A stretch of DNA of 35,852 bases from a virus (taxonomy: Duplodnaviria; Heunggongvirae; Uroviricota; Caudoviricetes): positions 1-35,852 of the IMG/VR virus record IMGVR_UViG_2778261246_000001. One strand, written 5' to 3'. The notes beneath the pieces were generated by a model, which searched no databases, had not been told where the DNA came from, and saw only the letters and a list, made by a program, of their open reading frames with translations. The first letter of the stretch is position 1. Every line of letters starts with the position of its first letter. Made by a program: the position numbers and the translations under genes. Positions 10,623 to 29,553 of this stretch are shown in pieces.

Positions 10623-10768
10623 CGAGATTAAAGTGCATTAGTTCAGATGCAAATTGACATTTTGTGGCACAGGGTAGAGCTAGCGTGGTTGTCCGCTTTG
10701 TGCCAACAGCGGACATTATAGATGGTATATGTAGAAAGTGAACATGCGTAGATTGTATGATTTAGCCG

Positions 10769-11578
10769 TCACTTAATTATTGGATAACTCACACAAGTAT
10801 GACCGTTGCTTATCGCATACATTTGGTTTCCCTTAAGATTTACAAATGGAAATGTCGTATACTCATAATTTATAGAGGTCATATTAAATGTAAGGAATTT
10901 ATCTTCAAGTTCTAATTTTGTAGAGTGGGCAGGGTATGTTCCTTCATTTTTCATTGTGATAATAAAACCGATAGGAAAAAAATGTAAAGCACAAATAAAT
11001 GCCACATGTCCTTCGTTCATAAATGCTACACTTTGAGCGGATATGTGCATTCTGTGTGGGTAAAACCAGTAGTAAATATCATGAGTTTCCTCAAAACTTG
11101 AATTTTTACCCAAAACATAATCCTTTAAAGGTGTATAGAAGGGGCTATCTACGGGTTCTTTTTTACAATCTTCAACTGAAGTTGCTGATAGCACGTGCCC
11201 AATCATAGCCTTAGTGAAAGATATGCTATCAAAAGGTATTCTAATGAATGGATATACATTCATACCATTCATATATCGACTTAACTGTTCTTTAAAGGAC
11301 TTTGTTACATTTTCAATTGCAACATCGAGCCCACCTAATACCTTATTGTTACAGTGGCTGCAAATGGTTCTGAAATAAGAGCCATTTTTAGCATTTAATG
11401 GTTTAACTGGTTCCTGAATACCAAAAAATTCGCTAACTGTTTTCTGCAAAACAGGGCCTAAGGTTATGGCGCACTTTGGAGGAACATGATCTTTTGTGAG
11501 CAAGCCATATTTCCCACAAATATTGCAATAACCTTCAGTAATGCCATTGTGCTTCCATCGTTCACTAATTTTCGTCAT
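10769..11578 (-). CDS. HNH-nuclease-like zinc-finger protein with uncharacterised C-terminal domain, 269 aa
   Basis: Intact ORF with SD GAGGGA 7 nt upstream; N-terminal C18-x2-C21...D30-H31-VPPK...C73-x2-C76-N77 is consistent with a bba-Me/HNH fold; sits alone in an AT-rich island. Confidence 0.6.
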   Translation of the reverse strand: MTKISERWKHNGITEGYCNICGKYGLLTKDHVPPKCAITLGPVLQKTVSEFFGIQEPVKPLNAKNGSYFRTICSHCNNKVLGGLDVAIENVTKSFKEQLSRYMNGMNVYPFIRIPFDSISFTKAMIGHVLSATSVEDCKKEPVDSPFYTPLKDYVLGKNSSFEETHDIYYWFYPHRMHISAQSVAFMNEGHVAFICALHFFPIGFIITMKNEGTYPAHSTKLELEDKFLTFNMTSINYEYTTFPFVNLKGNQMYAISNGHTCVSYPIIK

Positions 11579-11762
11579 TTTTATTCCCTCAGTAGCATAA
11601 GCTATCTATACGTTTTTTAATCCTATCAAAGATACAACTTAACGTCAGGAAAATGATAGTGTTTATCTAAGTAATACAATTAACTTCAACGCGTGACAGT
11701 CTGCTTTTCGCTCAAAGCGGACTAGAAGGTTAGCTTGCGTCGGACTTGGCGTATTTAAAGAA

Positions 11763-11987
11763 GTGCTGGTGGTGACTGGTTGTTGTGTTCCATTTCTACA
11801 GAATAAAATCACAGAAACTATACCCAATAGTTGTATTGAATCACTGACGAGACAGCCTCATATTTATCAGGACTGGTGTGCGTCTAATACAGGGGGTTGT
11901 CGTGCTGGTTCTCAAATGTGCGCTGGCTATTGCGGCTGTAATGGCAATTTATTGTCTTGCTGTTGTTCTTATGGAGCGGCTTTCTGA
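11763..11987 (+). CDS. Questionable small Cys-rich ORF (74 aa, GTG start)
   Basis: 11 Cys in 74 aa (..CASNTGGCRAGSQMCAGYCGCNGNLLSCCCSYGAAF); no ATG start and no convincing SD; may be a TG-rich chance frame. Confidence 0.15.
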   Translation: MLVVTGCCVPFLQNKITETIPNSCIESLTRQPHIYQDWCASNTGGCRAGSQMCAGYCGCNGNLLSCCCSYGAAF

Positions 11988-12138
11988 TTGATTACATACT
12001 GGCTAGAAAAAAGGTGTTACCTTGGTTTATCTTTGTCCGGCAAGGTGCGCTCATTAATCTTAAGTAAATTTATTGCTCAAGTATTCAGATTACTTCTTAT
12101 GGTTGAAGTCTCCTGTCAATGTAGAACCAATATATTTA

Positions 12139-12175
12139 CAAAAATGAGACCCGTCGGGGATAGCCCTGCCGGGTC
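12139..12175 (-). terminator. Putative rho-independent terminator downstream of the YeaR-like gene
   Basis: Arms AGACCCG / CGGGTCT (12146-12152, 12169-12175) with a T-run on the minus strand (complement of 12139-12145). Confidence 0.4.
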
Positions 12176-12205
12176 TGACTGTTAAAGCATTTTTAATATG
12201 ATCAT

Positions 12206-12544
12206 CTATTTTTTGGTGCTATAGACTTTTTCGCCCGAGAAGTCTGGAGCGACCCAAAAGTTAATATTAAACTGAGCATCATCGCTTAGTTCAACACGGT
12301 GCCAGTATTGTGGTGGGCTTGTTGCAAAAGCGCCAGCATTAATGACTACTTTTATCTCCGGTTCAGTAGCATTCTCATCAGTAAAACCATAATATGTTAC
12401 AGTGCCTTCCATTACGCACAACTGCCCAAAAACACCTGCTGCTGTATTATGATGTGTTAATAACGCTGAAGGTACGTTCTCTTTTGTGAAGAACGGAGTT
12501 GAGCGTTTGATTACCCAATCTTTAGGAATTCTCTTGTGTGTCAT
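12206..12544 (-). CDS. YeaR/DUF1971-family protein, about 112 aa
   Basis: Aligns by eye with recalled E. coli YeaR (RSTPFxxK...GxVxYxGxxDExxxEPxxxVxIxAGxFAxxPPxxWHxxExxxDxxFNIxFxVAP); strong SD GAGGAGG 5 nt before the internal ATG. Confidence 0.6.
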   Translation of the reverse strand: MTHKRIPKDWVIKRSTPFFTKENVPSALLTHHNTAAGVFGQLCVMEGTVTYYGFTDENATEPEIKVVINAGAFATSPPQYWHRVELSDDAQFNINFWVAPDFSGEKVYSTKK

Positions 12545-13357
12545 AACCACCTCCTCAAAAACATGCATTATAAATGCGTGTTTTTGAGGGTTATGTCAAG
12601 CTGTTATGAAACACATAATTGATATGTTGATTAGAGGAGAAGATATAATAAATATGGTTGTTTTTCGTATAACTATTTGTTTTACTTTTAGTTTATGCAT
12701 TCTGTGTGTTAGGAATAAGTTATTAAAGTTTAATAAAAAAATCTCGATGTAGTCCACATAGATTATTGTTACTGAACCTTATTGTGTGTATTAGTTGTGT
12801 TCTGAAATTTCAGCTTAATTATTTATGATGTATTTTTTAACGATAAATATTTTCCCAGGATACCTTTACTGTGTATATAAATAAATTATATACACATAAA
12901 TAATGTAAAGGCGTCCTTTTAGATATATCTTATCAAATGTTAATGACTTGAGTGGGAAATATGATTCCAGCAACTTATCATGTGGCTACTTTATAAAAAT
13001 AATGCCCATATAAAACAACAAGCGAAAAGGATTACGGATAAAAAAGGAGCGAGATGTGCGAACTTGTTATTTTCCATGTTTAACCACCTTAAATAATTGA
13101 TGATGACGGGATGATTGCATCTGTAATGCTTTTATTGAAATGTTATGATAAAAAAGAACTTTTGCATAACATTAAAATGTAATTTATCTAATCGTTTTTA
13201 ATAATAAATGTCGTATTTCTATCCTTGTACCAGCTATTTGATATGTAGTGTTTGTTCATGCTATGTGGGGCTTTACACCATAGCCAGTTTATTTATACTT
13301 TATTCGTCAGCCTGAACAACTGGCATCTGCTGCGCTGCGCCATCGAGAGATTGAGAA

Positions 13358-15113: not shown

Positions 15114-15189
<76 letters not shown>

Positions 15190-15192
15190 TAT

Positions 15193-15267
<75 letters not shown>

Positions 15268-17128: not shown

Positions 17129-17265
17129 AATCTTAACTACAATATGATTCATTTTGATGATTGTTTCATAAGGAACAGTGAAGTAAGATCTAAGAGGAGT
17201 TAAATTTTATACAGTATAATCATAATATTGCAGCAAGGTGGTTATAATTGAAAGAATATTTAGAT

Positions 17266-18723
17266 ATGAATACATCTCATGTAAGAGTTGTTACTCATAT
17301 GTGTGGGTTCTTGGTTTGGCTTTATAGTCTTTCAATGTTGCCACCAATGGTTGTAGCATTGTTTTATAAAGAAAAAAGCCTGTTCGTTTTCTTTATAACT
17401 TTCGTTATATTTTTTTGCATTGGTGGCGGAGCGTGGTATACAACTAAGAAATCTGGCATTCAATTACGTACCCGTGATGGGTTTATTATAATTGTAATGT
17501 TTTGGATTTTGTTTTCTGTTATTAGTGCATTCCCTTTATGGATTGACTCAGAACTTAATTTAACGTTCATTGATGCTCTGTTTGAAGGGGTTTCTGGAAT
17601 AACAACAACAGGAGCAACTGTAATTGATGATGTTAGTTCATTACCTCGGGCATATTTGTACTATCGGTCACAGTTAAATTTTATAGGTGGTTTAGGAGTT
17701 ATTGTTCTGGCGGTTGCAGTATTGCCATTATTGGGTATTGGTGGTGCAAAGCTTTATCAGTCAGAAATGCCGGGGCCATTTAAGGATGACAAACTCACTC
17801 CCCGCCTGGCCGATACGTCACGGACACTGTGGATAACTTATTCTTTATTAGGTATTGCTTGTATTGTCTGTTATAGACTTGCAGGAATGCCTTTGTTTGA
17901 TGCTATTTGTCACGGGATTTCCACAGTTTCGCTTGGTGGTTTCTCAACTCATAGCGAGAGTATCGGATATTTTAATAACTATTTGGTTGAGCTGGTGGCT
18001 GGTTCTTTTTCCCTGCTATCGGCTTTCAACTTCACTCTTTGGTATATTGTTATTAGCAGAAAAACGATAAAACCTTTAATCAGAGATATTGAACTTCGTT
18101 TCTTTCTGTTAATAGCCTTAGGGGTGATCATTGTTACCTCTTTCCAGGTCTGGCATATAGGTATGTATGACTTGCATGGAAGTTTTATTCATTCGTTTTT
18201 TCTTGCCAGCTCCATGCTCACTGATAATGGTTTAGCTACGCAGGATTATGCAAACTGGCCCACGCACACGATAGTGTTTTTGCTGTTGTCAAGTTTCTTT
18301 GGGGGATGTATAGGTTCAACCTGTGGTGGAATTAAGTCACTTCGATTTCTTATACTTTTCAAACAAAGCAAACACGAGATAAATCAGCTTTCTCATCCCA
18401 GAGCGTTGTTGAGTGTAAATGTAGGAGGGAAGATAGTTACAGATCGTGTAATGAGGTCTGTATGGAGTTTCTTTTTTCTTTATACTCTCTTCACGGTGTT
18501 TTTTATACTGGTGTTAAATGGTATGGGATATGATTTTCTTACATCATTTGCAACAGTGGCTGCATGTATTAATAATATGGGATTAGGTTTTGGGGCTACT
18601 GCATCGTCATTCGGAGTGCTTAATGACATTGCAAAGTATTTAATGTGCATAGCTATGATTCTTGGTCGCCTTGAAATTTATCCTGTTATTATATTGTTTT
18701 CAGGTTTTTTTTGGCGCTCCTAA
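17266..18723 (+). CDS. trkG: TrkG potassium uptake protein (TrkH/TrkG family), 485 aa
   Basis: Polytopic membrane protein matching recalled Rac TrkG (MNTSHVRVVTHMCGFLVWLYSL...); markedly AT-rich relative to neighbours (moron). Confidence 0.85.
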   Translation: MNTSHVRVVTHMCGFLVWLYSLSMLPPMVVALFYKEKSLFVFFITFVIFFCIGGGAWYTTKKSGIQLRTRDGFIIIVMFWILFSVISAFPLWIDSELNLTFIDALFEGVSGITTTGATVIDDVSSLPRAYLYYRSQLNFIGGLGVIVLAVAVLPLLGIGGAKLYQSEMPGPFKDDKLTPRLADTSRTLWITYSLLGIACIVCYRLAGMPLFDAICHGISTVSLGGFSTHSESIGYFNNYLVELVAGSFSLLSAFNFTLWYIVISRKTIKPLIRDIELRFFLLIALGVIIVTSFQVWHIGMYDLHGSFIHSFFLASSMLTDNGLATQDYANWPTHTIVFLLLSSFFGGCIGSTCGGIKSLRFLILFKQSKHEINQLSHPRALLSVNVGGKIVTDRVMRSVWSFFFLYTLFTVFFILVLNGMGYDFLTSFATVAACINNMGLGFGATASSFGVLNDIAKYLMCIAMILGRLEIYPVIILFSGFFWRS

Positions 18724-18860
18724 TATATGGCTGATTTATAATTGTGAGTTTAATATTATGTTGACTCACTCATTGATCCAATACCTAACTTTACCAGCAA
18801 CACCTCCGCCCCCAGTAGCACTGGCTGCTGGGGTGCGTTTTATTCATAAAGCAAGGCTGT

Positions 18861-19652
18861 ATGAGCGAGAAATTAAAGATAGTCTATCGCCCATTACAAG
18901 AATTGTCACCGTATGCGCACAACGCCAGGACGCACAGCCCTGAGCAGGTGGCACAACTGGTAGAAAGTATTAAGCAATTCGGCTGGACTAATCCGGTGCT
19001 GATTGACGAAAAGGGCGAAATTATTGCGGGTCACGGTCGTGTTATGGCGGCTGAAATGCTCAAAATGGATTCTGTTCCGGTCATTGTTCTGTCTGGCCTG
19101 ACGGATGAGCAGAAAAAGGCGTACCGCCTGGCAGATAATCGCCTGCCGATGAATGCTGGCTGGGATGAAGATCTGTTGCGGATGGAGCTGTCGGACCTAA
19201 TCAATGCTGATTTTGATGTCTCCCTGACAGGCTTCATCCCGACAGAAATTGATGAACTGTTGACGGATGTTTTGCCCGGTACAGGAAATGAGGAGGAGCC
19301 GTATACGACGAAAATTGATACGCCTGTTTATGAGCCGTCGGGCGGTAAACCGGATATCAGTGAACTGTACGACGATACGAAAACTCAGGAGCTGATCAGC
19401 CGGATACGTTCGGCGTCCCTTGAGCCTGATATTGAGAAATTCCTCCTGTGTGCGGCAGAACGTCACACGGTGTTTAATTTCAGCAGAATTGCGGACTATT
19501 ACGCTCACGCCCCCGCTGAAATTCAGTGTTTTTTCGAGGAGTCGGCGCTGGTGATCATTGATTATCAGCAGGCTATTGAAAATGGATTTGTCCGGATGAC
19601 GCAGCGCATGGTGGAGATCATGCATGGTGGTGAGGAGGAGGAATATGCGTGA
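18861..19652 (+). CDS. ynaK: ParB-like nuclease-domain protein, 263 aa
   Basis: N-terminal ParB/Srx-like motif (..NPVLIDEKGEIIAGHGRVMAA..LSGLTDEQKKAYRLADNRL); acidic C-terminus; symbol by analogy with the Rac ynaK fragment, from memory. Confidence 0.65.
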   Translation: MSEKLKIVYRPLQELSPYAHNARTHSPEQVAQLVESIKQFGWTNPVLIDEKGEIIAGHGRVMAAEMLKMDSVPVIVLSGLTDEQKKAYRLADNRLPMNAGWDEDLLRMELSDLINADFDVSLTGFIPTEIDELLTDVLPGTGNEEEPYTTKIDTPVYEPSGGKPDISELYDDTKTQELISRIRSASLEPDIEKFLLCAAERHTVFNFSRIADYYAHAPAEIQCFFEESALVIIDYQQAIENGFVRMTQRMVEIMHGGEEEEYA

Positions 19653-20577
19653 TGATTTTTGCGCCTTTATTCTGACTCACGGGCGACCAGACAAAGTTCT
19701 GACTTACCGGACGTTGCGTCGTGCTGGCTATACCGGGAAAATTTTTATCGTTGTTGATGATGAAGATAAGACACGGCATCAGTACATGGCTGAATTTGGT
19801 GAACAGGTGCTGGTGTTTTCCAAAGCCGATATCGCCAGTCGTTTTGACGAAGCCGATAATTTCTGTGACCGCCGCTCAATTTTTTACGCCCGTAATGCCT
19901 GTTTTGACCTGGCAAAACTGGTCGGGTGTAAATACTTCATTCAGCTCGATGATGATTATCACGAGTTCCAGTTTCGGGTGGATCGCAACTATGACCAGGC
20001 CTATTTTCCGATAAGGAAACTGGATGCGATCCTTTCTGAAATGCTGGCGTACTACGAATCAATACCTGCTCTTTCCATCGCTATGTCGCAGGGCGGGGAT
20101 TTTCTTGGTGACAATGGCGGCCATGCTTCGTGGGTGAAACGCAAGGCAATGAACAGCTTTATCTGTTCGGTTGATCGACCGTTCTCATTCATGGGGCGCA
20201 TTAACGAGGATGTGAATACGTACACGAATCTCGGTCGCTGTGGTGAATTGTTTATGACGATCGGTGCTGTCCAGTTAGGGCAGAAACAGACGCAGAAAAA
20301 CAGCGGCGGAATGACCGAGCTGTATCTGGATTCCGGAACCTACGTTAAAAGTTTTTACTCCGTCATGTATGCGCCGTCGTGCGTAAAAATTTCACTGATG
20401 GGTGCCAGCCATAAACGCATTCACCATCAGGTCACCTGGAACAACGCTGCAGTAAAAATCCTTCACGAAAAATACAGGAAGAAGACACCCTGCATATCAA
20501 TGGGGGTGACAAATGATTCCGTATTCGAAAGTCGAGTCTCTGGCAGCGTGCCGGATGACTGCACAACAAATCGCTGA
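19645..20577 (+). CDS. Uncharacterised phage protein (YdaY-like), about 310 aa, with an acidic DDD motif
   Basis: ORF 19624..20577; the ATG at 19645 overlaps the ParB-like stop (ATGCGTGA); segments KIFIVVDDEDK and YFIQLDDDYHEF hint at a nucleotide-dependent transferase fold; function unknown. Confidence 0.5.
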   Translation: MRDDFCAFILTHGRPDKVLTYRTLRRAGYTGKIFIVVDDEDKTRHQYMAEFGEQVLVFSKADIASRFDEADNFCDRRSIFYARNACFDLAKLVGCKYFIQLDDDYHEFQFRVDRNYDQAYFPIRKLDAILSEMLAYYESIPALSIAMSQGGDFLGDNGGHASWVKRKAMNSFICSVDRPFSFMGRINEDVNTYTNLGRCGELFMTIGAVQLGQKQTQKNSGGMTELYLDSGTYVKSFYSVMYAPSCVKISLMGASHKRIHHQVTWNNAAVKILHEKYRKKTPCISMGVTNDSVFESRVSGSVPDDCTTNR

Positions 20578-20764
20578 CGTTCTGGATGTTGATCTGAACC
20601 GACTGAAAGAAAATCGGGAAGCAATGACAGATTTTTATGCGGCCATCCGTAAGGGCAGAGCGAAAGGTGAAGCCGAGTTACGAGCGGCATTGTTTAAGCT
20701 TGCCAGAAAAGGGGATGCTTTTGCTCTGCGCGAACTACTCAGGGTGGATAAAAATCAGGACTAA
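20513..20764 (+). CDS. Small phage protein, 83 aa, upstream of the terminase small subunit
   Basis: SD GGGGTGA 5 nt before the ATG; overlaps the 3' end of the preceding gene in another frame. Confidence 0.4.
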   Translation: MIPYSKVESLAACRMTAQQIADVLDVDLNRLKENREAMTDFYAAIRKGRAKGEAELRAALFKLARKGDAFALRELLRVDKNQD

Positions 20765-20767
20765 CTG

Positions 20768-21862
20768 ATGAGCAGACCGGACTGGGGGGCGTTGCAGCAG
20801 GAGTATATTGCTGAATACACCCGCTCCGGTATATCTCCGGTGGCATGGTGTGAAGCAAGGGGACTGAATTACGCAACAGCCCGTCGTTACATCAAAAAAA
20901 CTCCGAAAAATGCGCAGACAGAAATGCGCAAAACTGCGCAAAAAAGTGCGCAGAAAAAATCTGCGCAGACTGCACAAAAGCGGAACGAAAAATCTCAGGA
21001 AAAAAAGCCAGTATTCGATGCGGGCCTGAATGAGGGCGACGCGGAGGAATTTTCGTTCTGTCCCGATGAATTCGGCATTTCTGACCAGCAGGCTAAGTTT
21101 GCGATGCTTGTTGCTCAGGGTAAAAAGCCGACAGAGGCGTACCGACTAGCCGGTTATGAGGGGCAAGGTGCGACAGCTAACAGCAACGCCAGTCGTATGC
21201 TTAGAAATGCCAGGGTTTTTCGCGCTATCAGCTACTTCCGCAATCAGTACCAGAAACGCTATACCGCAGACCTGGATTTACTAGTGAGTCAGTTGATGGC
21301 CATTGTCCTGGCCGACCCCAATCAGCTTGCACAATTTCGCCGTGTTAACTGCCGTTATTGCTGGGGCGAGAATCATCTCTACCAGTGGCGCGATATAGCA
21401 GAATTCGACAAGGCAGCGGCGCAGGCTTCCAGAGATGGCAAACCCGAACCGGAATATGGAGGCCTCGGCTTTGTTGATAACGCCATACCCAATCCGGACT
21501 GCCCGAAGTGCTGCGGTGAGGGAACGGGACAGCTTTATATGGCTGATACCACTCTGCTTGATGGGGATGCGCGGCAATTATATGCAGGGGCAAAATTCGG
21601 AAAATTCGGCGTTGAGATCCTGCTGGAGGATAAGGCTGCCGCCCGGCGTGAATTGTTGCGTTTGCTTTCTGCTGGCGGGGCTTTATGTGCAGATAAGCGG
21701 CTACAGGAACTGGAAATTGAACGGCGCAGAATGGAAAACCAGAAGCTGCGCAAAGAGATCGAAACGGTGGAAGATAATGAACATCCCCAGCCTGTGGCGA
21801 TCAAAATTAATGTGGTTGATGCCAGAGTAAGGAGTGATGAAGATGATCTCTCCGACGCTTAA
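20768..21862 (+). CDS. Terminase small subunit (N-terminal HTH), 364 aa
   Basis: N-terminal HTH-like segment (ISPVAWCEARGLNYATARRYIKK); immediately upstream of and overlapping the large terminase; Cys cluster and C-terminal coiled coil. Confidence 0.6.
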   Translation: MSRPDWGALQQEYIAEYTRSGISPVAWCEARGLNYATARRYIKKTPKNAQTEMRKTAQKSAQKKSAQTAQKRNEKSQEKKPVFDAGLNEGDAEEFSFCPDEFGISDQQAKFAMLVAQGKKPTEAYRLAGYEGQGATANSNASRMLRNARVFRAISYFRNQYQKRYTADLDLLVSQLMAIVLADPNQLAQFRRVNCRYCWGENHLYQWRDIAEFDKAAAQASRDGKPEPEYGGLGFVDNAIPNPDCPKCCGEGTGQLYMADTTLLDGDARQLYAGAKFGKFGVEILLEDKAAARRELLRLLSAGGALCADKRLQELEIERRRMENQKLRKEIETVEDNEHPQPVAIKINVVDARVRSDEDDLSDA

Positions 21863-23144
21863 TGTGCCTCAGGCGCGATTTCTTTCAATGCCCCATAAAT
21901 TTAAAGCCTATATTGCTGGTTTTGGCTCGGGCAAAACATGGGTTGGGTGTGGCGGCATATGCAAGGAGATTTGGGAGCATCCAGGTATAAATCAGGGATA
22001 TTTTGCGCCAACGTATCCCCAAATTCGCGATATTTTTTACCCTACAGTGGAAGAAGTTGCTGCTGACTGGGGATTGAACGTAAAAATTAATGAGGGAAAT
22101 AAAGAGGTTCACTTTTATTACGGACGCCAGTATCGGGGAACCACTATCTGCAGATCGATGGAGAAGCCACAAACGATCGTCGGTTTCAAAATTGGTAATG
22201 CGTTGGTGGATGAACTGGACATTTTGCCGAAGGAAAAAGCCAGAACGGCGTGGCGCAAGATAATTGCACGTATGCGTTATAAGATTGATGGACTTCGCAA
22301 CGGTATTGACGTTACAACCACGCCGGAAGGATTCAAATTTGTCTACGAGCAGTTTGTTAAAGCCGTGCGTGAAAAAACAGAGCTGGCCTCACTGTATGGT
22401 CTGGTGCAGGCATCTACTTTCGATAATGAAAAGAACCTGCCAGCAGATTACATTCCTTCGCTTCTTGAATCATACCCTCCAGAGCTGATTAAAGCCTATC
22501 TTCGAGGACAGTTTACTAACCTGACAAGTGGTACTGTTTACCATCAGTTTGACCGGAAACTGAATAATTGCGAAGAAGTGGAGCAGCCAGGGGAGCCGAT
22601 TTATATTGGGATGGATTTTAACGTTGGAAAGATGGCGGGAATCGTCCATGTGCTGCGTTTGGGGCTTCCATGTGCGGTAACTGAAATCATCAATGCCTAC
22701 GATACGCCGGATATGATCCGCATCATTAAAGAACGCTTCTGGCTGTATGATGGGAATGATTACCGGAAAGTGAGGGAAATTTATATTTATCCAGATGCTT
22801 CCGGGGATTCCAGAAAATCAAGTAACGCAAGTACGACGGATATAGCCCAGCTTAAGCAGGCTGGTTTTAACGTTGTGGTGAACAGCTCGAACCCGCCAGT
22901 AAAAGATCGCGTTAACTCAATGAATGCAATGTTCTGCAATGCCAATGGTGAGCGTCGCTATAAAGTTAATGTGAAGCGTTGCCCGTTATATGCCGAATCT
23001 CTGGAGCAACAGGTCTGGGATGAGAAGGGGGAGCCTGATAAAAAATCTGGCAATGATCACCCGAATGATGCCGGAGGTTATTTCATCGTTAAGCAATTCC
23101 CTATTGTCAAACCGACCGGAAGAGTCACATCACTTCGGATTTAA
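21843..23144 (+). CDS. Terminase large subunit (ATPase/nuclease), about 433 aa
   Basis: Walker A GFGSGKT near the N-terminus; the track ORF begins at GTG 21834, the ATG at 21843 has SD AAGGAG at better spacing; followed by the portal gene. Confidence 0.85.
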   Translation: MISPTLNVPQARFLSMPHKFKAYIAGFGSGKTWVGCGGICKEIWEHPGINQGYFAPTYPQIRDIFYPTVEEVAADWGLNVKINEGNKEVHFYYGRQYRGTTICRSMEKPQTIVGFKIGNALVDELDILPKEKARTAWRKIIARMRYKIDGLRNGIDVTTTPEGFKFVYEQFVKAVREKTELASLYGLVQASTFDNEKNLPADYIPSLLESYPPELIKAYLRGQFTNLTSGTVYHQFDRKLNNCEEVEQPGEPIYIGMDFNVGKMAGIVHVLRLGLPCAVTEIINAYDTPDMIRIIKERFWLYDGNDYRKVREIYIYPDASGDSRKSSNASTTDIAQLKQAGFNVVVNSSNPPVKDRVNSMNAMFCNANGERRYKVNVKRCPLYAESLEQQVWDEKGEPDKKSGNDHPNDAGGYFIVKQFPIVKPTGRVTSLRI

Positions 23145-23146
23145 TT

Positions 23147-24553
23147 ATGGCTGATATATCAACACCCAACCTCGACTATAACGATATGCTGGAGGCGTGG
23201 GATATTAACGACGCACTGATGGGCGGTACGCTTGAAATGCGCAGGCAGGGGGAAAATTATCTCCCAAAATGGCCTAACGAAGATGAAGACGCTTATAAAA
23301 AACGCCTGTCTGTGGCTACGCTACTTCCTGTGTATGAAGAAAGCATCAAGCAAAATATTGGGCGCATATTTGCAGAGCCGACAGTATTGAGTGAGGAAAC
23401 GCCGGCAAAAATCAGGGAATATGCAGAAAATATCGACATGGAGGGGAGCCGACTGGATGTGTGGGCGCAGCAATTTTTCAGCCTCGCATTTCAGTATGGT
23501 GTGGCACATGCGCTGGTGGACTATCCACGAACGGATATGAAAGAGATTCGGACAAAAGCCGATGAAAACGCGACCGGTGGTCGTCCGTACGTTACGATGC
23601 TGAATCCACGCCAGGTTATTGGATGGAAATCGAAAGTTGAAAAAGGGAAAGTTGTTCTCACTGATTTGCGTATAAAAGAGGTCATCATTATTGATGGTGA
23701 TGATTTCGGGCAGAAGAAGGTGGAGCAGATCCGCCATATTATGCCCCGTCGAGTTGAAATTTATCGACGTAGCGAAGGCACTAATGGCGAATCTGTCTGG
23801 ACGCTTCATGAGTCATGGAATACCAGCCGTGATGATATTCCTCTGGTAACACTGTACACGAAGAAAACAGGATTTATGCGTGGTACACCGCCATTGCTTA
23901 ATCTTGGCTTGCTGAATATCAAGCACTGGCAAAGCCAGAGCGAGCAGGACAATATTCTTCATGTTGCCCGCGTTCCATTACTGGTGGCCTACGGGCTGGA
24001 CAGGAATGAAGAACTGACGGTTGGTGCATCCACCGCTACGATTTTTGAGGACAGAACAAAAAATGGCCTCGAATATGTTGAACATAGTGGCGCAGCGATA
24101 GAATCTGGCGAAACATCACTTGAGAAGCTGGAAAATCAGATGCGTCATGCCGGCGCTAAACTTCTGCGTGCTGAAAATACATCCACCAAATCTGTTGATC
24201 AGACTAATGAAGAGCGAATGCAGGAAAACTCGCCGCTTTATACAATGGCGAACTCCCTCGAAGATGCCCTCGATAATATTCTCCAGATAATGGCGGAATG
24301 GATCGGAGAGAGTTGCGGTGGCAATGTGGATGTGCGCACTGAACTGGATGTATCTGCCCAGGTGTTTGACTCATCCTCCGCGCTGGCTGTTCAGTCATTG
24401 CGTCAGGGCGGTGATATACGTCAGATTGATGCGGTTCGGGTGTTGCAGGCGTTGAAATTTATCGATCAGGATTCCCGTCCAGAGGAAGTGATCGATGAAT
24501 TAAAAAATCAGAGTGTAATGCTGATGGAAATCAATGATGCAAACCGTGAATGA
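23147..24553 (+). CDS. Portal protein, 468 aa
   Basis: Size and position immediately after the large terminase; acidic C-terminus. Confidence 0.65.
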   Translation: MADISTPNLDYNDMLEAWDINDALMGGTLEMRRQGENYLPKWPNEDEDAYKKRLSVATLLPVYEESIKQNIGRIFAEPTVLSEETPAKIREYAENIDMEGSRLDVWAQQFFSLAFQYGVAHALVDYPRTDMKEIRTKADENATGGRPYVTMLNPRQVIGWKSKVEKGKVVLTDLRIKEVIIIDGDDFGQKKVEQIRHIMPRRVEIYRRSEGTNGESVWTLHESWNTSRDDIPLVTLYTKKTGFMRGTPPLLNLGLLNIKHWQSQSEQDNILHVARVPLLVAYGLDRNEELTVGASTATIFEDRTKNGLEYVEHSGAAIESGETSLEKLENQMRHAGAKLLRAENTSTKSVDQTNEERMQENSPLYTMANSLEDALDNILQIMAEWIGESCGGNVDVRTELDVSAQVFDSSSALAVQSLRQGGDIRQIDAVRVLQALKFIDQDSRPEEVIDELKNQSVMLMEINDANRE

Positions 24554-25649
24554 ACGGCTGCGTGATGAATCAATTGCTCATGCAGTCTGGATATCCCGCT
24601 ATAGCACTGGCGTGGCTGCCAGAATGGTGAAAATACTGAATGACAGCGATGCGGAACTTACTGCTCGCCTGCTGATAGCACTGGACAGCCTCGATCCAGG
24701 TAGTTTTACCGTTAAGCGCCTGGAGTCACTTCTGGCGAGCGTCAGAGAGGTTAACCGCACTGCTATTAACAGCATGTTTACCAGTCTCTCCGGAGAGCTG
24801 AACGAGCTGGCAATTTATGAGGCTGGTTATCAGTTAAGTCTGTTTGATTCTATGCTACCTGATTTTGTTGCTGATGTTCACCCTCTGGTTGGTATCTCTC
24901 CTGATGCACTTTATGCCGCTGCAATGGCGCGACCATTCCAGGGACGACTGCTCAGTGAGTGGGCCTCAGATCTTGAAGCGGATCGGCTCAGACGCATAAC
25001 AAATACAGTGCGTCAGGGTTTTTTGCTGGGGGATACCAATGAGCAGATCGCAAGAAAAATTCGGGGACATGTCAGTAAGGGATTTCAGGATGGCGCATTG
25101 CAGATGAGCCGGGCTAATGCGGCCAGCATTGCAAAAACAGCGGTTGGACATCTTGCTGCTACTGCCCGTGAGAGTTTTGCCAGCGCGAATAATGATTTGA
25201 TTAAGGGTAAGCAATGGTTATCAACGCTTGATAATCGTACTACGCCACAATGTCGAATCAGGGATCGCCTCAAATATACGCTGAATAATAAACCTGTAGG
25301 TCACAGCGTGCCTTATTTGCAGGGGCCGGGAAAAATTCATTTCTGCTGCCGCTCAACGGAAACGTTCATTCTGAAATCAGCGAAGGAACTGGGTATTGAT
25401 GTTCGCGATATTTCCCCGGCTGAGCGGGCCAGCATGGATGGCGTGGTGGCCGGAGATACAACCTACAGGGAATGGTTTTTGCGTCAGCCTTACACCAGAC
25501 AAAAACAGATTGTGGGGGAAACCCGAGCAAAGCTGATTCGGGATGGTGGTATGTCGCCAGATGAATTTTACACCGATAAAGGCGAATGGCTGACGCTGAA
25601 GCAGCTCCGTGAGCGTGATGCACAGGTATTCAGAAAAGCAGGGATTTAA
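24534..25649 (+). CDS. Head morphogenesis protein (Mu F / SPP1 gp7-like), 371 aa
   Basis: Position after the portal with overlapping start; family inferred from context and size. Confidence 0.55.
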   Translation: MMQTVNERLRDESIAHAVWISRYSTGVAARMVKILNDSDAELTARLLIALDSLDPGSFTVKRLESLLASVREVNRTAINSMFTSLSGELNELAIYEAGYQLSLFDSMLPDFVADVHPLVGISPDALYAAAMARPFQGRLLSEWASDLEADRLRRITNTVRQGFLLGDTNEQIARKIRGHVSKGFQDGALQMSRANAASIAKTAVGHLAATARESFASANNDLIKGKQWLSTLDNRTTPQCRIRDRLKYTLNNKPVGHSVPYLQGPGKIHFCCRSTETFILKSAKELGIDVRDISPAERASMDGVVAGDTTYREWFLRQPYTRQKQIVGETRAKLIRDGGMSPDEFYTDKGEWLTLKQLRERDAQVFRKAGI

Positions 25650-25668
25650 ATAAATCATTTATTACAAC

Positions 25669-25693
25669 AGGCTACCTTCGGGTGGCCTTTTTT
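25669..25693 (+). terminator. Hairpin with TTCG tetraloop plus T-run
   Basis: AGGCTACC-TTCG-GGTGGCCT followed by TTTTTT. Confidence 0.45.
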
Positions 25694-25753
25694 ATTGCTG
25701 CGATCCGGATGGTGAGCAGCGTAACTGTCGGAAGACTTAAACCAGGTACTAAT

Positions 25754-26518
25754 ATGAAACTGAAAACGGTCGAGATTAACGGAAAACAATACGCAGAAAT
25801 TGATACTGCTGGCCTGCCAGTTTATGTGCACGACGATGGTAAAGAAATTGGCTTCGATGCACCGCTGGCGACAAAAAAAATTACAGAGCTTAATGGCGAG
25901 GCAAAAAATCATCGCCTGGCTAAAGAAGCTGCAGAGGAAAAACTGGCTAAGTTTGCCGCTATCGAAGACCCGAAGAAGGCGATCGAGGCACTGGAAATGC
26001 TGTCAAAAATCGACCAGAAAAAGCTGATCGATGCGGGACAGGTTGACCAGGTTAAGGCAGAAATTACGAAAAATTTTCAGCAGCAATTAGATGAAGAAAA
26101 GCAACGCTCTCAGATGCTGGAGAAGCAGCTTTACGATTCTATGATTGGCGGTAGTTTTGCGGGTTCAAAATATATTGCCGATAAAATTGCGATCCCGGCA
26201 GATTTATTACAAGCCCGCTTCGGGCAGGCATTCAAAGTGGAAGAAGGGAGGATCGTTGCTTATGACGCTTCCGGCAACAAAATTTATTCCCGCGCGAAGC
26301 CTGGCGAACTGGCGCAGTTTGATGAGGCGCTGGAGTTCCTTGTCGAAAATTACCCTCAGAAAGACTACATCCTGAAAGCCAGTGGCAACAATGGCGGCGG
26401 CTCCCGTCCGACACAGCATGATATTGGTCAGAAAACGATGAAACGCTCTGCTTTTGATGCACTGGATGTTGCAGGTAAGCAAAACGCATTGAAAGACGGT
26501 ATCACAATCGTTGATTAA
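25754..26518 (+). CDS. Putative scaffolding protein, 254 aa
   Basis: Acidic, coiled-coil-rich protein immediately upstream of the major capsid gene; internal ATG at 25754 used as start. Confidence 0.55.
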   Translation: MKLKTVEINGKQYAEIDTAGLPVYVHDDGKEIGFDAPLATKKITELNGEAKNHRLAKEAAEEKLAKFAAIEDPKKAIEALEMLSKIDQKKLIDAGQVDQVKAEITKNFQQQLDEEKQRSQMLEKQLYDSMIGGSFAGSKYIADKIAIPADLLQARFGQAFKVEEGRIVAYDASGNKIYSRAKPGELAQFDEALEFLVENYPQKDYILKASGNNGGGSRPTQHDIGQKTMKRSAFDALDVAGKQNALKDGITIVD

Positions 26519-26616
26519 CACATTTGTCAGCTTCCGGATGGGAGCTGGTGTCAGGGCTGGATAGCTCATTACTCCATCTATTCACAATTACGCAAATTTT
26601 TAAGGAATATTTAATT

Positions 26617-27756
26617 ATGGCTGGAAATACCCTGACCGGGTTGATCCCGACTATTTATACCGCCCTGGATGTTGTATCCCGTGAGCAGGTAGGTTTTATC
26701 CCTGCGGTAGCAAAAAACGCAAAAGCTGACGCCGCAGCAAAAGATCAGACGGTAACCGCGCCAGTTGCGCCTGAGGCGAAAACCGAAGATATCGTACCGG
26801 GGCCGTCAGCTCCGAATACCGGTGATCAAAATATTGGCACTGTTGATGTAAAAATTACTAAATCCAAAATGGCACCGGTTAAATGGAATGGTGAAGAACA
26901 ACTGGCTCTTGGCCCTTCAGGGACTTACAACACCATTCTGGCTGATCAGTTCAAGCAGGCTTTTCGCGCCCTTGCAAACGAGGTTGAGGCTGATCTTGGT
27001 GCGTTGTATTTCGGTGCTTCCCGCGCCGTGGGAACCGCAGGGACAACGCCGTTTGGTGTTAAAGATGATCTTTCTGATGCTGCTCTGGCTCGTCAGGTTC
27101 TGGAGGATAACGGCGCACCGACAACCGATCTGCAGATGGTGCTTGGCTCCACTGCCATTGCTAATTTGCGCGGAAAACAGTCTGTATTGTTTAAAGTGAA
27201 TGAATCCGGCACTGAACAGCTACTGCGTGAGGGCGTGTTGGGGCGTCTGGAGGGATTCAATATTCACAGTTCGGCAGGTGTGAAACGAGCGCCAAAGGTT
27301 GCTGCAACTGGTTATCTCGTGAATGGAGAGAAAAAAGAAGGCGATGTTCTTATTTCCATTGATACTGGTTCGGGGAGTATTTCTGCAGGTCAGATTGTTA
27401 CGTTCGCTGGTGATCCGAATCAGTATGTTGTGGCAGCAGCGACCAGCAATCTGATTACTCTTGCAGCGCCCGGACTGCGTCAGGATCTGGCCGATGATAC
27501 TGCCATCACAGTTGTTGGGGCCTTTACTGCAAATATGGCGTTTGATCGCAACGCGTTTCTGCTGGCATCCCGTACTCCGGCAATGCCGGAAGGTGGCGAT
27601 AATGCTGATGATGTAATGAATGTTACGGACCCGATTTCAGGGATTACGTTCCAGATTGCACTGTATCGTCAGTATCGCCAGGTGCGCTATGAAGTTGGAC
27701 TGGCATGGGGTGTTTCATCAGTGAAGCCGGCACATGGTTGTCTGATTCTTGGTTAA
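26617..27756 (+). CDS. Putative major capsid protein, 379 aa
   Basis: Internal ATG at 26617 with SD TAAGGAA; position after the scaffold; followed by a strong terminator. Confidence 0.6.
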   Translation: MAGNTLTGLIPTIYTALDVVSREQVGFIPAVAKNAKADAAAKDQTVTAPVAPEAKTEDIVPGPSAPNTGDQNIGTVDVKITKSKMAPVKWNGEEQLALGPSGTYNTILADQFKQAFRALANEVEADLGALYFGASRAVGTAGTTPFGVKDDLSDAALARQVLEDNGAPTTDLQMVLGSTAIANLRGKQSVLFKVNESGTEQLLREGVLGRLEGFNIHSSAGVKRAPKVAATGYLVNGEKKEGDVLISIDTGSGSISAGQIVTFAGDPNQYVVAAATSNLITLAAPGLRQDLADDTAITVVGAFTANMAFDRNAFLLASRTPAMPEGGDNADDVMNVTDPISGITFQIALYRQYRQVRYEVGLAWGVSSVKPAHGCLILG

Positions 27757-27766
27757 ACATTCAAAC

Positions 27767-27786
27767 GGGGCTTCGGCCCCATTTTT
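27767..27786 (+). terminator. Rho-independent terminator after the capsid gene
   Basis: GGGGC-TTCG-GCCCC followed by ATTTTT. Confidence 0.6.
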
Positions 27787-27798
27787 AATGGGGGGCAT

Positions 27799-27975
27799 AT
27801 GGCCGGATTAACTAAAGAGCAAAGAGCACAGCGTGAAGCCGCACAAAAAACGCAAATTGAGTTAGTGGTTATGGTGACCGATTATCAGATGTTTCCCGGC
27901 GCACCAACTATCGCTAATGTTCATCCTGATGAAGTTGACAACTGGAAGGCTATGGGCTGGAAAACTCAGGAGTAA
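27799..27975 (+). CDS. Small hypothetical protein, 58 aa
   Basis: Not in the ORF track; MAGLTKEQRAQREAAQKTQIELVVMVTDYQMFPGAPTIANVHPDEVDNWKAMGWKTQE; G-rich SD just upstream. Confidence 0.4.
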   Translation: MAGLTKEQRAQREAAQKTQIELVVMVTDYQMFPGAPTIANVHPDEVDNWKAMGWKTQE

Positions 27976-27978
27976 CAC

Positions 27979-28374
27979 ATGATCACTTACGTGACCTGTG
28001 ATGACGTTGATAATGCGTTTGGGAACGCCTGGACGAGTGAGAACGCTAAAAATAAAGCTGTTTTAATGGCTAATGCCTGGCTTAATGGCTTCAACCTGAA
28101 AATTAACCCATCCCGTATTCCGGAAGAGGTAAAACTTGCGGGAGCATATGCAGCCAGAATTGCCTCATTCGGTAAGTTGTTTCAGCAGAAAAATGATTCT
28201 GGCGTTGTTATCAGTAAAGCCGTGTCGGCTGACGGGGTCAGTGTATCGAAATCATTTTCTGAGTTGCCAGCAAACAGCACTGCATTGCTTGAACCCGATT
28301 TACAGCTTGCGATAGCACTGCTGAAACCGTACGGACTTAGTCGCTCACAAGTCAGGGTTGTGAGGGGGGGATAA
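27979..28374 (+). CDS. Putative head-tail connector / adaptor protein, 131 aa
   Basis: Position in the head-completion block; function inferred from gene order. Confidence 0.45.
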   Translation: MITYVTCDDVDNAFGNAWTSENAKNKAVLMANAWLNGFNLKINPSRIPEEVKLAGAYAARIASFGKLFQQKNDSGVVISKAVSADGVSVSKSFSELPANSTALLEPDLQLAIALLKPYGLSRSQVRVVRGG

Positions 28375-28757
28375 TGGGGCTTCGTGAAGAGATTCAGTCA
28401 GAGGTTGCCGCTGCTTTTGATGAGGATTTAGCGGACGCCGTGAGTGATTTTTCTGGTTCTTACGTTACGCACCGGCACTGGGATCCTGTGACGGAAACTG
28501 GCGGCGAATCCACCGCAATCTATACCGGGCGAGGCGTGTTGACACGTTATAAGCTGGGCAGAATTGATGGGATTAATATTTTGCATGGTGACCTTAAATT
28601 AACCGCTCTGGTATGCGAGGTTACGGATAAACCAGCTGTCGACCATATTATTGAGATTTATGATCCTGTATCAAGGCAGTTACAACGATACGAGGTAATT
28701 ACAGCAAGTGTAGATCCTTCCGCATCAGTTTACTCTATCCAGTTAAGGAGAGCGTAA
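28374..28757 (+). CDS. Putative head closure / head-tail joining protein, 127 aa
   Basis: Start overlaps the upstream stop (TAATG); gene order. Confidence 0.45.
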   Translation: MGLREEIQSEVAAAFDEDLADAVSDFSGSYVTHRHWDPVTETGGESTAIYTGRGVLTRYKLGRIDGINILHGDLKLTALVCEVTDKPAVDHIIEIYDPVSRQLQRYEVITASVDPSASVYSIQLRRA

Positions 28758-29138
28758 ATGGCAAAGGCATGGGATATAGAACCGTCAATATTTGCCGGGA
28801 TGATTGAGGAAGATGTAGGGCTGAAGATTCGCTACATCGCTATTCAGATTCTTACTGCTATTGATATTGCTGCTCCGGTTGATACCGGACGTTTCAGAAA
28901 TAACAACCTGGTGTCGTTACAGCATCCCGATTTTGGTATATCTGATAACGTGGATCCGAACGGTACGATTGCTGTTCAGCGTGGGATCGGGGTTATTTCG
29001 AAAGCTGCAAATTACGGGGTTATTTATATCCAGAATAACCTTCCTTATGCAGAGGCTCTTGAAAACGGTCATTCACAACAAGCGCCAACTGGCGTGTATG
29101 CCAACGCTTTTCATGGTGTTTTACAGGCTTACAAATGA
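28758..29138 (+). CDS. HK97 gp10-like tail-component protein, 126 aa
   Basis: Contains PVDTGRFRNN, which resembles the VDTGRLRNS signature I associate with the HK97 gp10 family. Confidence 0.5.
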   Translation: MAKAWDIEPSIFAGMIEEDVGLKIRYIAIQILTAIDIAAPVDTGRFRNNNLVSLQHPDFGISDNVDPNGTIAVQRGIGVISKAANYGVIYIQNNLPYAEALENGHSQQAPTGVYANAFHGVLQAYK

Positions 29139-29527
29139 CGTTTACTGAAATCAGAAATACGGTTATTTCCAGAATGACGGCACAGACGATTATTGATGGA
29201 AAAGACGTATTGTATCCGAACGGGCCAACGTTCGATCCTTCCGGTAAGTTAATCTGGGCGCGGTTAAGTAATATTCCCGGGCAGGCTGGAGTTAATGAAA
29301 TTGGCGCGGGGCCGGTTGTTTATCGCACGGGGATAATCATTATTCAGTTATTTGTCCCCGCAGGTTCTGGTTCAAAACTCATTACTGAGACAGCCGATAA
29401 ATTGCGGGAACTGTTTGAGTTTCAGGATGACGATCGTCTCAGTTACCAGGCTGTTTCCTCAATAGCCGTTGGCGAAAAGAATGGCTGGTTCCAGCTTAAT
29501 CTTCAAATTCCATATCGCGCGCTCTAG
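29135..29527 (+). CDS. Putative tail completion / terminator protein, 130 aa
   Basis: Overlapping start (ATGA); position immediately before the major tail gene. Confidence 0.45.
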   Translation: MTFTEIRNTVISRMTAQTIIDGKDVLYPNGPTFDPSGKLIWARLSNIPGQAGVNEIGAGPVVYRTGIIIIQLFVPAGSGSKLITETADKLRELFEFQDDDRLSYQAVSSIAVGEKNGWFQLNLQIPYRAL

Positions 29528-29553
29528 CGCAATTAATGACATAGGAGGCTCCT

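Follow-up and report, generated by a model that had tools for sequence, protein, structure and literature searches.

Two overlapping genes lie directly ahead of the terminase genes in a Rac-type lambdoid prophage of Escherichia coli, and the question they raise is whether they encode a single modification system and, if so, which molecule this system modifies. The prophage makes up IMG/VR virus record IMGVR_UViG_2778261246_000001, and the whole record, 35,852 nucleotides in length, is the stretch of DNA analyzed here (the window). The original prediction, made from the letters alone, described two intact overlapping genes just upstream of the terminase, the first encoding a 263-residue protein with a ParB/Srx-type N-terminal motif and the second a 310-residue protein suggestive of a metal- and nucleotide-dependent transferase. 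Open reading frames (ORFs) were found at 18861-19652 and 19645-20577, and both proteins are full length in relation to their homologues, in agreement with that description. The 310-residue protein belongs to the TAGT glycosyltransferase family and its gene is paired with that of the ParB-like protein in 58 of 58 non-redundant loci. The invariant element of this partner is its C-terminal domain and not the ParB motif, a point which had been overlooked.

The 310-residue protein matched the Pfam family TAGT (PF20691, 'TET-associated glycosyltransferase') between residues 15 and 229, with 122.1 bits against a cut-off of 27.5 and an E-value of 4e-35, and matched phrog_842 with an E-value of 7e-104. 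The two acidic segments that had suggested a transferase are YFIQLDDDYHEF at residue 97 and IVVDDEDK at residue 35. YFIQLDDDY holds a DxD motif (D102-D104, nucleotides 19948-19956) and IVVDDEDK holds D38 and D41, both invariant in the family. Across the homologues, R14, D102-D103-D104, N187-E188-D189 and H260-H261 are invariant, and the invariant residues correspond to R...DDD...ED[Y/F], the active-site set of the phage DNA glycosyltransferases with a glycosyltransferase-A (GT-A) fold and of the trypanosome base-J glucosyltransferase (bioRxiv 10.1101/2023.12.21.572611).

The tertiary structure was modeled with AlphaFold2 on the basis of 17 homologues. Model confidence for residues 1-150 was mostly above 85 per 10-residue block, with a dip at residues 61-80, and the confident part showed an enzyme-like GT-A fold. 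All 33 PDB matches with an E-value of 0.001 or lower have a GT-A-type nucleotide-diphospho-sugar-binding fold; the best were collagen galactosyltransferase (COLGALT1), SpsA, SunS/ThuS, glycogenin and GnT-I, and all are similar at the fold level only, with template modeling (TM) scores of 0.2-0.4. Family, DxD motif and modeled fold support the 310-residue protein as a metal- and nucleotide-sugar-dependent GT-A glycosyltransferase with predicted activity, in line with the transferase proposed earlier. Residues 216-290 are basic (isoelectric point, pI, of 9.7). No membrane segment was predicted in this protein or in its partner, with a maximum Kyte-Doolittle 19-residue mean of 1.1-1.25, and the candidate function of a membrane or envelope glycosyltransferase was rejected because neither protein has a hydrophobic segment.

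The ORF may be read from 19624 or from 19645, and 19645 is considered the best start because its ATG is preceded by the Shine-Dalgarno sequence GAGGAGGAGGAAT, overlaps the end of the partner gene, stop codon included, by 8 nucleotides, and yields the N-terminus MRDDFCAF, which is common to all homologues. Between positions 19626 and 19647 the codons of the acidic tail of the partner (GEEEEYA) double as this Shine-Dalgarno sequence.

The 263-residue partner matched Pfam ParB_N between residues 23 and 90 with 28.9 bits against a cut-off of 26.3, as expected from the ParB/Srx motif described at first, and matched phrog_620 ('ParB-like partition protein') with an E-value of 1e-90. Its N-domain is closest to the ParB-fused DNA methyltransferases (PADLOC MTase_II, 2.5e-38; phrog_498, 1.2e-50). 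The remainder of the protein is formed by a linker and an acidic C-terminal domain of about 115 residues which no Pfam family matches. The partner as a whole is strongly acidic, with a pI of 4.5 and a net charge of about -25, and all homologues checked have an acidic C-domain (pI 4.3-5.5). According to the partner model, the predicted local distance difference test (pLDDT) values are 85-94 for the C-domain and below 50 for residues 137-155, and a linear motif, Y148-P159, begins within this low-confidence stretch; its residues Y148, K151, P155 and Y157 are invariant across phyla. The C-domain, with the consensus FLxxAAxRHxxF..IAEYYAH..Q.L.E.SALVIIDF..AI..G, is better conserved than the ParB N-domain and defines a family of 1188 clusters at 50% identity, nearly always located at the C-terminus of proteins of 250-300 residues.

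Searches in both directions showed the same coupling. When TAGT was the query, the partner was directly upstream and on the same strand in 60 of 60 loci, down to 50% identity, in Enterobacterales, Bacteroides, Dysgonomonas, Lachnospiraceae, Prosthecochloris, Desulfovibrionaceae, Saccharibacteria and other hosts; when the C-domain alone was the query, TAGT was directly downstream in 79 of 79 viral loci. The 58 non-redundant loci, delimited at less than 80% TAGT identity, all contain both genes, which is a stricter co-occurrence than was expected, and the hosts of the pair include Enterobacterales, Bacteroides, Firmicutes, Nocardia and Vibrio as well as a haloarchaeal virus. Clustering of all neighboring ORFs in these loci showed no third conserved gene, the only other recurrent neighbor families being terminase subunits and a small ORF resembling the terminase small subunit (TerS).

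Partner architecture in the non-redundant loci shows which domain is constant: 45 have the N- and C-domains, nine have the C-domain only (about 120-135 residues), and four are truncated by the end of a contig. Some lineages dispense with the ParB N-domain, namely nine of the 54 that can be scored, to which the Vibrio jumbo phage pv27 is added. Furthermore, in a Bacteroides subgroup (the Bacteroidales loci L091, L093, L100, L104 and L108) the arginine of the Box II GxxR motif is replaced (AGNGVYEQ) while the C-domain is kept, and nucleotide binding by the N-domain has probably been lost there. Long partner variants were also searched for fusions of the partner to TAGT, and none was found; they contain a tandem ParB N-domain (P0320), a low-complexity tail (P0324) or, in the metagenomic P0265, a C-terminal FkbM-type methyltransferase. 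In addition, a Hyphomonadaceae locus (L107, 3581-5275) has an extra TAGT-methyltransferase fusion between the partner and TAGT. By analogy with DNA hypermodification clusters, the variants L107 and P0265 suggest that the glycan may be elaborated in some lineages.

We judge it an even call that the pair encodes a two-subunit, late-expressed glycosyltransferase system which glycosylates phage DNA after replication, before or during packaging. TAGT would be the soluble, metal-dependent GT-A catalyst, using a nucleotide-sugar. The 263-residue protein would be its obligate partner, whose C-domain and Y-T-x-K-I-x-x-P-x-Y-x-P peptide would bind the enzyme, perhaps through the basic C-terminal third of the latter; the ParB/Srx N-domain would serve as an optional module, binding nucleotide and assisting the enzyme in engaging double-stranded DNA. 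Strict pairing, translational coupling and complementary charge argue for a two-subunit enzyme. Late expression beside the terminase, the DNA substrates of the family and the kinship of the N-domain with methyltransferase-fused ParB proteins point to DNA glycosylation before or during packaging, and the sugar on phage DNA could then protect this DNA from host nucleases on entry. What we infer in this proposal is the physical complex, DNA as the acceptor, the glycosylated atom and the anti-defense benefit.

The timing follows from the arrangement of the locus. A terminator-like hairpin separates trkG from the partner gene, and no convincing sigma-70 promoter was found between this hairpin (18810-18833) and position 18861, which suggests that the pair is probably read with the late operon, just before the terminase, and by anti-terminated late transcription only.

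Comparison with known systems places the pair between several of them. The TET/JBP-associated phage GT-A enzymes, which include the 5mYOX-linked enzymes of the NEB group, and the trypanosome base-J glucosyltransferase share with the window protein the TAGT match, the GT-A fold and the R...DDD...ED residues, and the phage enzymes among them are likewise often encoded near ParB-like and terminase genes. However, the window TAGT is not accompanied by a 5-methylpyrimidine dioxygenase, a C5-methyltransferase or a hydroxymethylase, and it has an obligate partner domain that we did not find described in the literature on those systems. The beta-glucosyl-HMC-alpha-glucosyltransferase of T2/T6 is included in the same Pfam family and has the same fold; however, homologues of T4-like Aeromonas phages are only 22-26% identical to the window TAGT (tblastn, E-value about 1e-4), the T2/T6 enzyme itself was not retrieved with it by tblastn at an E-value of 0.01 or lower, and the annotated prophage has neither a 5-hydroxymethylcytosine pathway nor a first-step alpha- or beta-glucosyltransferase. 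The name 'beta-glucosyl-HMC-alpha-glucosyltransferase', given in PHROG and RefSeq, is unjustified here for these reasons.

The closest analogue of the partner is found among the ParB-dependent thymine dioxygenases. ParB-like proteins are required for the activity of a subclass of phage T-dioxygenases on double-stranded DNA (5mYOX176/ParB176; O'Toole et al., PNAS 2026, PMC13229309), and the ParB176-type proteins have an N-domain, a linker and a C-domain, without a DNA-binding domain, in which mutations of nucleoside triphosphate (NTP)-binding residues had little effect (PMC13229309). The window partner likewise shows, in its AlphaFold2 model, an N-domain, a flexible linker and a C-domain, lacks a canonical DNA-binding domain and is encoded beside its putative client enzyme. 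The Bacteroides subgroup without the Box II arginine fits this analogy, because the NTP-binding residues seem dispensable in both systems, here in some lineages. The two differ in that the client in the window is a glycosyltransferase, with no dioxygenase nearby, and in that the C-domain alone is enough in some lineages of the pair whereas ParB176 needed both domains.

The ParB/DNA methyltransferase fusions, which are enriched in prophages (PMC12704722), contain the N-domain most similar to that of the window partner; however, in the window a dedicated C-domain ties this domain in trans to a glycosyltransferase. Chromosomal and plasmid ParB proteins of ParABS systems share the ParB/Srx N-terminal fold and the GxxR motif, whereas the window partner falls below the TIGR00180 cut-off (38 against 58 bits) and is very acidic. 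No recognized helix-turn-helix or dimerization domain was found in the partner and no ParA is annotated in the prophage. A partition function was rejected from the absent ParA, the TIGR00180 score and the acidity of the protein.

The point on which DNA glycosylation is weakest is the acceptor. Characterized phage enzymes of the TAGT family glycosylate 5-hydroxymethylcytosine or an already glucosylated base (PMC13216743, PMC8256090, bioRxiv 10.1101/2023.12.21.572611). Several results, taken together, weigh against the reading. No TET/JBP dioxygenase, C5-methyltransferase or hydroxymethylase was found in the prophage according to its PGAP annotation and Pfam searches of its hypothetical proteins. 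No recurrent precursor enzyme was found within 5 kb on either side of the pair in the 58 loci, by clustering and by pooled Pfam searches covering the 25 most frequent families, and none is annotated in the complete genomes of the phages c5 and phi jlb1. Since no source of the usual acceptor, 5-hydroxymethylcytosine or 5-hydroxymethyluracil, is at hand, DNA glycosylation by this pair would need an unprecedented acceptor. Likewise, about 65% of contigs containing such glycosyltransferases lack a neighboring 5mYOX or thymidylate-synthase-like gene, and their tie to DNA modification is regarded as less obvious by the authors of that survey (bioRxiv 10.1101/2023.12.21.572611); the eukaryotic TAGT-domain protein GREB1 O-GlcNAcylates protein and not DNA (PMC7968844); and no experiment on this TAGT subfamily was found in the literature searched. 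The proteins themselves add two further points of this kind. Both domains of the partner are strongly acidic, with pI values of 4.3-5.5 across homologues, which is unusual for a protein that would bring an enzyme to DNA, and residues 216-310 of TAGT, the part proposed to receive the partner, are modeled with low confidence. The earlier suggestion that the pair modifies phage DNA or counters host defense is, by family and analogy, still the most plausible; its weak side is that no enzyme generating the acceptor was found.

One way out would be that unmodified DNA receives the sugar from the module directly, at a canonical base or elsewhere in the DNA, without a hydroxymethyl-pyrimidine precursor. 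We consider this specific form unlikely; if true, it would be a new kind of DNA glycosylation, by a GT-A enzyme needing a small acidic partner domain, and it would have a wide distribution, in temperate phages of E. coli, of gut Bacteroides and Firmicutes and of actinobacteria, and in haloarchaeal viruses.

The same lack of a DNA acceptor pathway would be explained if the enzyme glycosylated a protein, most likely its own partner at Tyr or Thr of the Y148-P159 motif, or else a virion or host protein, and the partner would then be the substrate or primer and not the activator. The motif is hydroxyl-rich, invariant across phyla and located in a linker predicted to be disordered; a strict one-to-one coupling of enzyme and C-domain would suit an enzyme-substrate pair; GREB1 offers a precedent in the family; and the best PDB folds include COLGALT1, SunS/ThuS and glycogenin, which glycosylate proteins or peptides. 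However, these matches are at the fold level only and extend to glycosyltransferases with other acceptors, such as SpsA, and an invariant peptide of Tyr, Pro and Lys equally suits a docking motif. Furthermore, all characterized phage members of the family act on DNA, including the T2/T6 enzyme (PMC13216743) and the 5mYOX-linked glycosyltransferases (PMC8256090), the subtype of the ParB/Srx N-domain is otherwise fused to DNA methyltransferases, and the position before the terminase suits a DNA-directed role. A protein target is the main rival reading, and we regard it as unlikely.

That position could also be read differently, with the ParB-like protein as a packaging factor, for pac or cos recognition or as a nuclease helper of the terminase, and the transferase as an accessory with a marking or regulatory part in packaging. 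Among the 40 non-redundant loci with enough sequence beyond the pair, at least 27 have a terminase subunit as the first large ORF downstream, and in most lineages terminase genes follow the pair immediately; Nocardia phage NTR1 has it abutting the gene of the terminase large subunit (TerL), with no annotated TerS, and phage c5 has it beside cos. An idea attributed to Iyer et al. 2013, as cited in PMC8256090 and PMC13229309, is that ParB proteins steer modification machinery to specific sites during packaging. However, the adjacent terminases are unrelated (Terminase_6N/3, Terminase_2, GpA and T7 types), cos and pac phages are both represented, and a separate TerS is usually present. In the Vibrio jumbo phages the pair is among replication genes and without the ParB N-domain, and in HHTV-2 it is removed from TerL by about 3 kb occupied by other genes. 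The module also seems dispensable, since Lactobacillus delbrueckii phages and many E. coli prophages have frameshifted or truncated copies of it. A role as packaging factor is accordingly quite improbable, and the narrower candidate of the partner as a TerS or as a factor specific to one terminase was rejected, given the usual separate TerS, the at least four unrelated terminase families and the Vibrio jumbo phage copies away from the terminase; the original prediction had named membership of the small subunit system as an alternative, which does not hold. In distant phages the pair is located between replication genes (PolA, primase-helicase, methylase) and packaging genes, and its upstream neighbors are heterogeneous.

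Finally, it is very improbable that the pair is lysogenic-conversion or defense cargo which glycosylates, to the benefit of the lysogen, a component of the host envelope or foreign DNA on entry, since, although prophage GT-A enzymes such as TarP remodel cell-surface polymers, prophage glycosyltransferases hypermodifying invading genomes have been raised as a possibility (both bioRxiv 10.1101/2023.12.21.572611) and the pair adjoins the cargo gene trkG, neither protein has a membrane segment, no PADLOC defense model matches TAGT, the terminator-like hairpin and the absent promoter set the pair apart from trkG, and the genes are embedded in the late operon next to terminases and are present in strictly lytic phages (c5 and the Vibrio jumbo phages).

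Part of what is described here is already catalogued, as Pfam TAGT, as 'GREB1-related protein' in PGAP and as PHROGs 620 and 842, and earlier work had noted that phage genes for ParB, glycosyltransferases and terminases are loosely associated. The TAGT family is said to have been defined in 2013 by Iyer et al., who reportedly also discussed ParB. In the literature searched we did not find the one-to-one coupling of a TAGT subfamily with a specific unannotated C-domain, the dispensability of the ParB N-domain, the consistent absence of a precursor pathway, or a host breadth from E. coli to a haloarchaeal virus. Solitary TAGT genes were reported in 288 of 753 phage genomes (PMC13216743). One large 'solitary' TAGT subfamily is never truly alone and is always found with a specific partner domain, usually on a ParB-like protein, and the question of the solitary phage glycosyltransferases can now be tested directly in E. 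coli. Should DNA be the target, either the chemistry or the acceptor of DNA glycosylation would be new, and the role of ParB-like helpers would extend from dioxygenases to glycosyltransferases; if the target is protein, the reading of phage TAGT annotations would change.

Table 1. Location of the pair and of adjacent features in the window, and of the pair in other viruses.
Feature	Position	Strand	Details
Terminator-like hairpin	18810..18833	+	10-bp stem, seven G-C pairs, T-rich tail; between trkG and the ParB-like gene
ParB-like partner gene	18861..19652	+	263 aa; intact ynaK orthologue
ParB/Srx-fold N-domain of the partner	18861..19265	+	aa 1-135; motifs N21-x-R23 and G57-H-G-R60
Linear motif of the partner	19302..19337	+	Y148-T-x-K151-I-x-x-P155-x-Y157-x-P159; linker predicted to be disordered
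Helical C-terminal domain of the partner	19338..19595	+	aa about 160-245, followed by the acidic tail
TAGT gene	19645..20577	+	PF20691, GT-A glycosyltransferase (predicted), 310 aa
Small basic TerS-like ORF	20513..20764	+	83 aa from 20513, or 69 aa from 20555 (PGAP)
TerS gene	20768..21862	+	364 aa; Pfam Terminase_2, phrog_51
TerL gene	21834..23144	+	436 aa; Pfam Terminase_6N/6C
Pair in Lactobacillus phage c5	1-1713 (L192)		ORF1 and ORF2, immediately after cos
Pair in Lactobacillus phage phi jlb1			Pair followed by TerS, TerL and portal
Pair in Nocardia phage NTR1			Orf1 and Orf2, then TerL; no annotated TerS
Pair in haloarchaeal virus HHTV-2			Genes 21 and 22; about 3 kb of other genes before TerL
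Pair in Vibrio jumbo phages			Among replication genes, away from the terminase

The gene order of the window runs from recE through kilR, sieB, racR, ydaS/T, the replication genes, a Q-like region, two tRNA genes, the lysis genes and trkG to the structural genes, and the pair is located 3' of the lysis genes, between trkG and the terminase. Downstream of TAGT, the small TerS-like ORF, TerS and TerL follow without gaps. The small ORF is similar to the central part of a small terminase subunit (phrog_309, 8e-23) and is kept downstream of the pair in 21 of the 58 non-redundant loci; it overlaps the 3' end of TAGT owing to an extension of the transferase by about 20 residues that is specific to the Escherichia lineage. 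Many E. coli prophages and ten deposited phage records match this region of the window at 99-100% identity. Some match was present in 1580 of the 5426 complete E. coli genomes, and at least 80% of the pair in 889, so that about one genome in six contains it intact.

Three other elements of the window were recorded. The trkG gene (17248-18723) forms a low-GC stretch (0.38-0.40) between the lysis genes and the late packaging operon and, given this low GC content and its own terminator-like hairpin, looks like a classic cargo insertion. Two prophage tRNA genes, tRNA-Thr (TGT) at 15114-15189 and tRNA-Gly (TCC) at 15193-15267, separate the Q-like region from the lysis genes. An island of very low GC content (0.34-0.38) at about 10700-13000 contains a DUF1971/TehB-family gene and a minus-strand ORF of 269 residues without a Pfam match, and is probably another cargo insertion, at the early-to-late junction.

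The original prediction had also named ynaK and ydaY as truncated counterparts of the two genes in the Rac prophage of K-12, and this was correct for ynaK only. K-12 Rac shows a single clean deletion of 11,560 bp, equivalent to 19115-30674 of the window, which joins codon 85 of the ParB-like gene to ydaY; ynaK is the first 254 nucleotides of the ParB-like gene, and the transferase, terminase and head genes were lost through the deletion. Intact ydaY is at about 30667-31026 of the window, between the tail tube and tape measure genes, and its candidature as a transferase remnant was rejected, as in intact prophages it is an unrelated tail-region gene. K-12, which keeps only the first 85 codons of the partner and no transferase, is a natural null host for co-expression tests.

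Many other E. coli genomes show different truncations or fusions at the same spot as the K-12 deletion. Long E. coli 'TAGT' proteins carry extra Pfam domains (tail-fiber, NlpC/P60 and similar), and look like products of prophage deletions. In the dairy phages phiLdb, Ld17, LL-Ku and Ld25A, the copies of the pair are frameshifted or remnant, and such decay in Lactobacillus delbrueckii phages suggests that the module is dispensable in culture.

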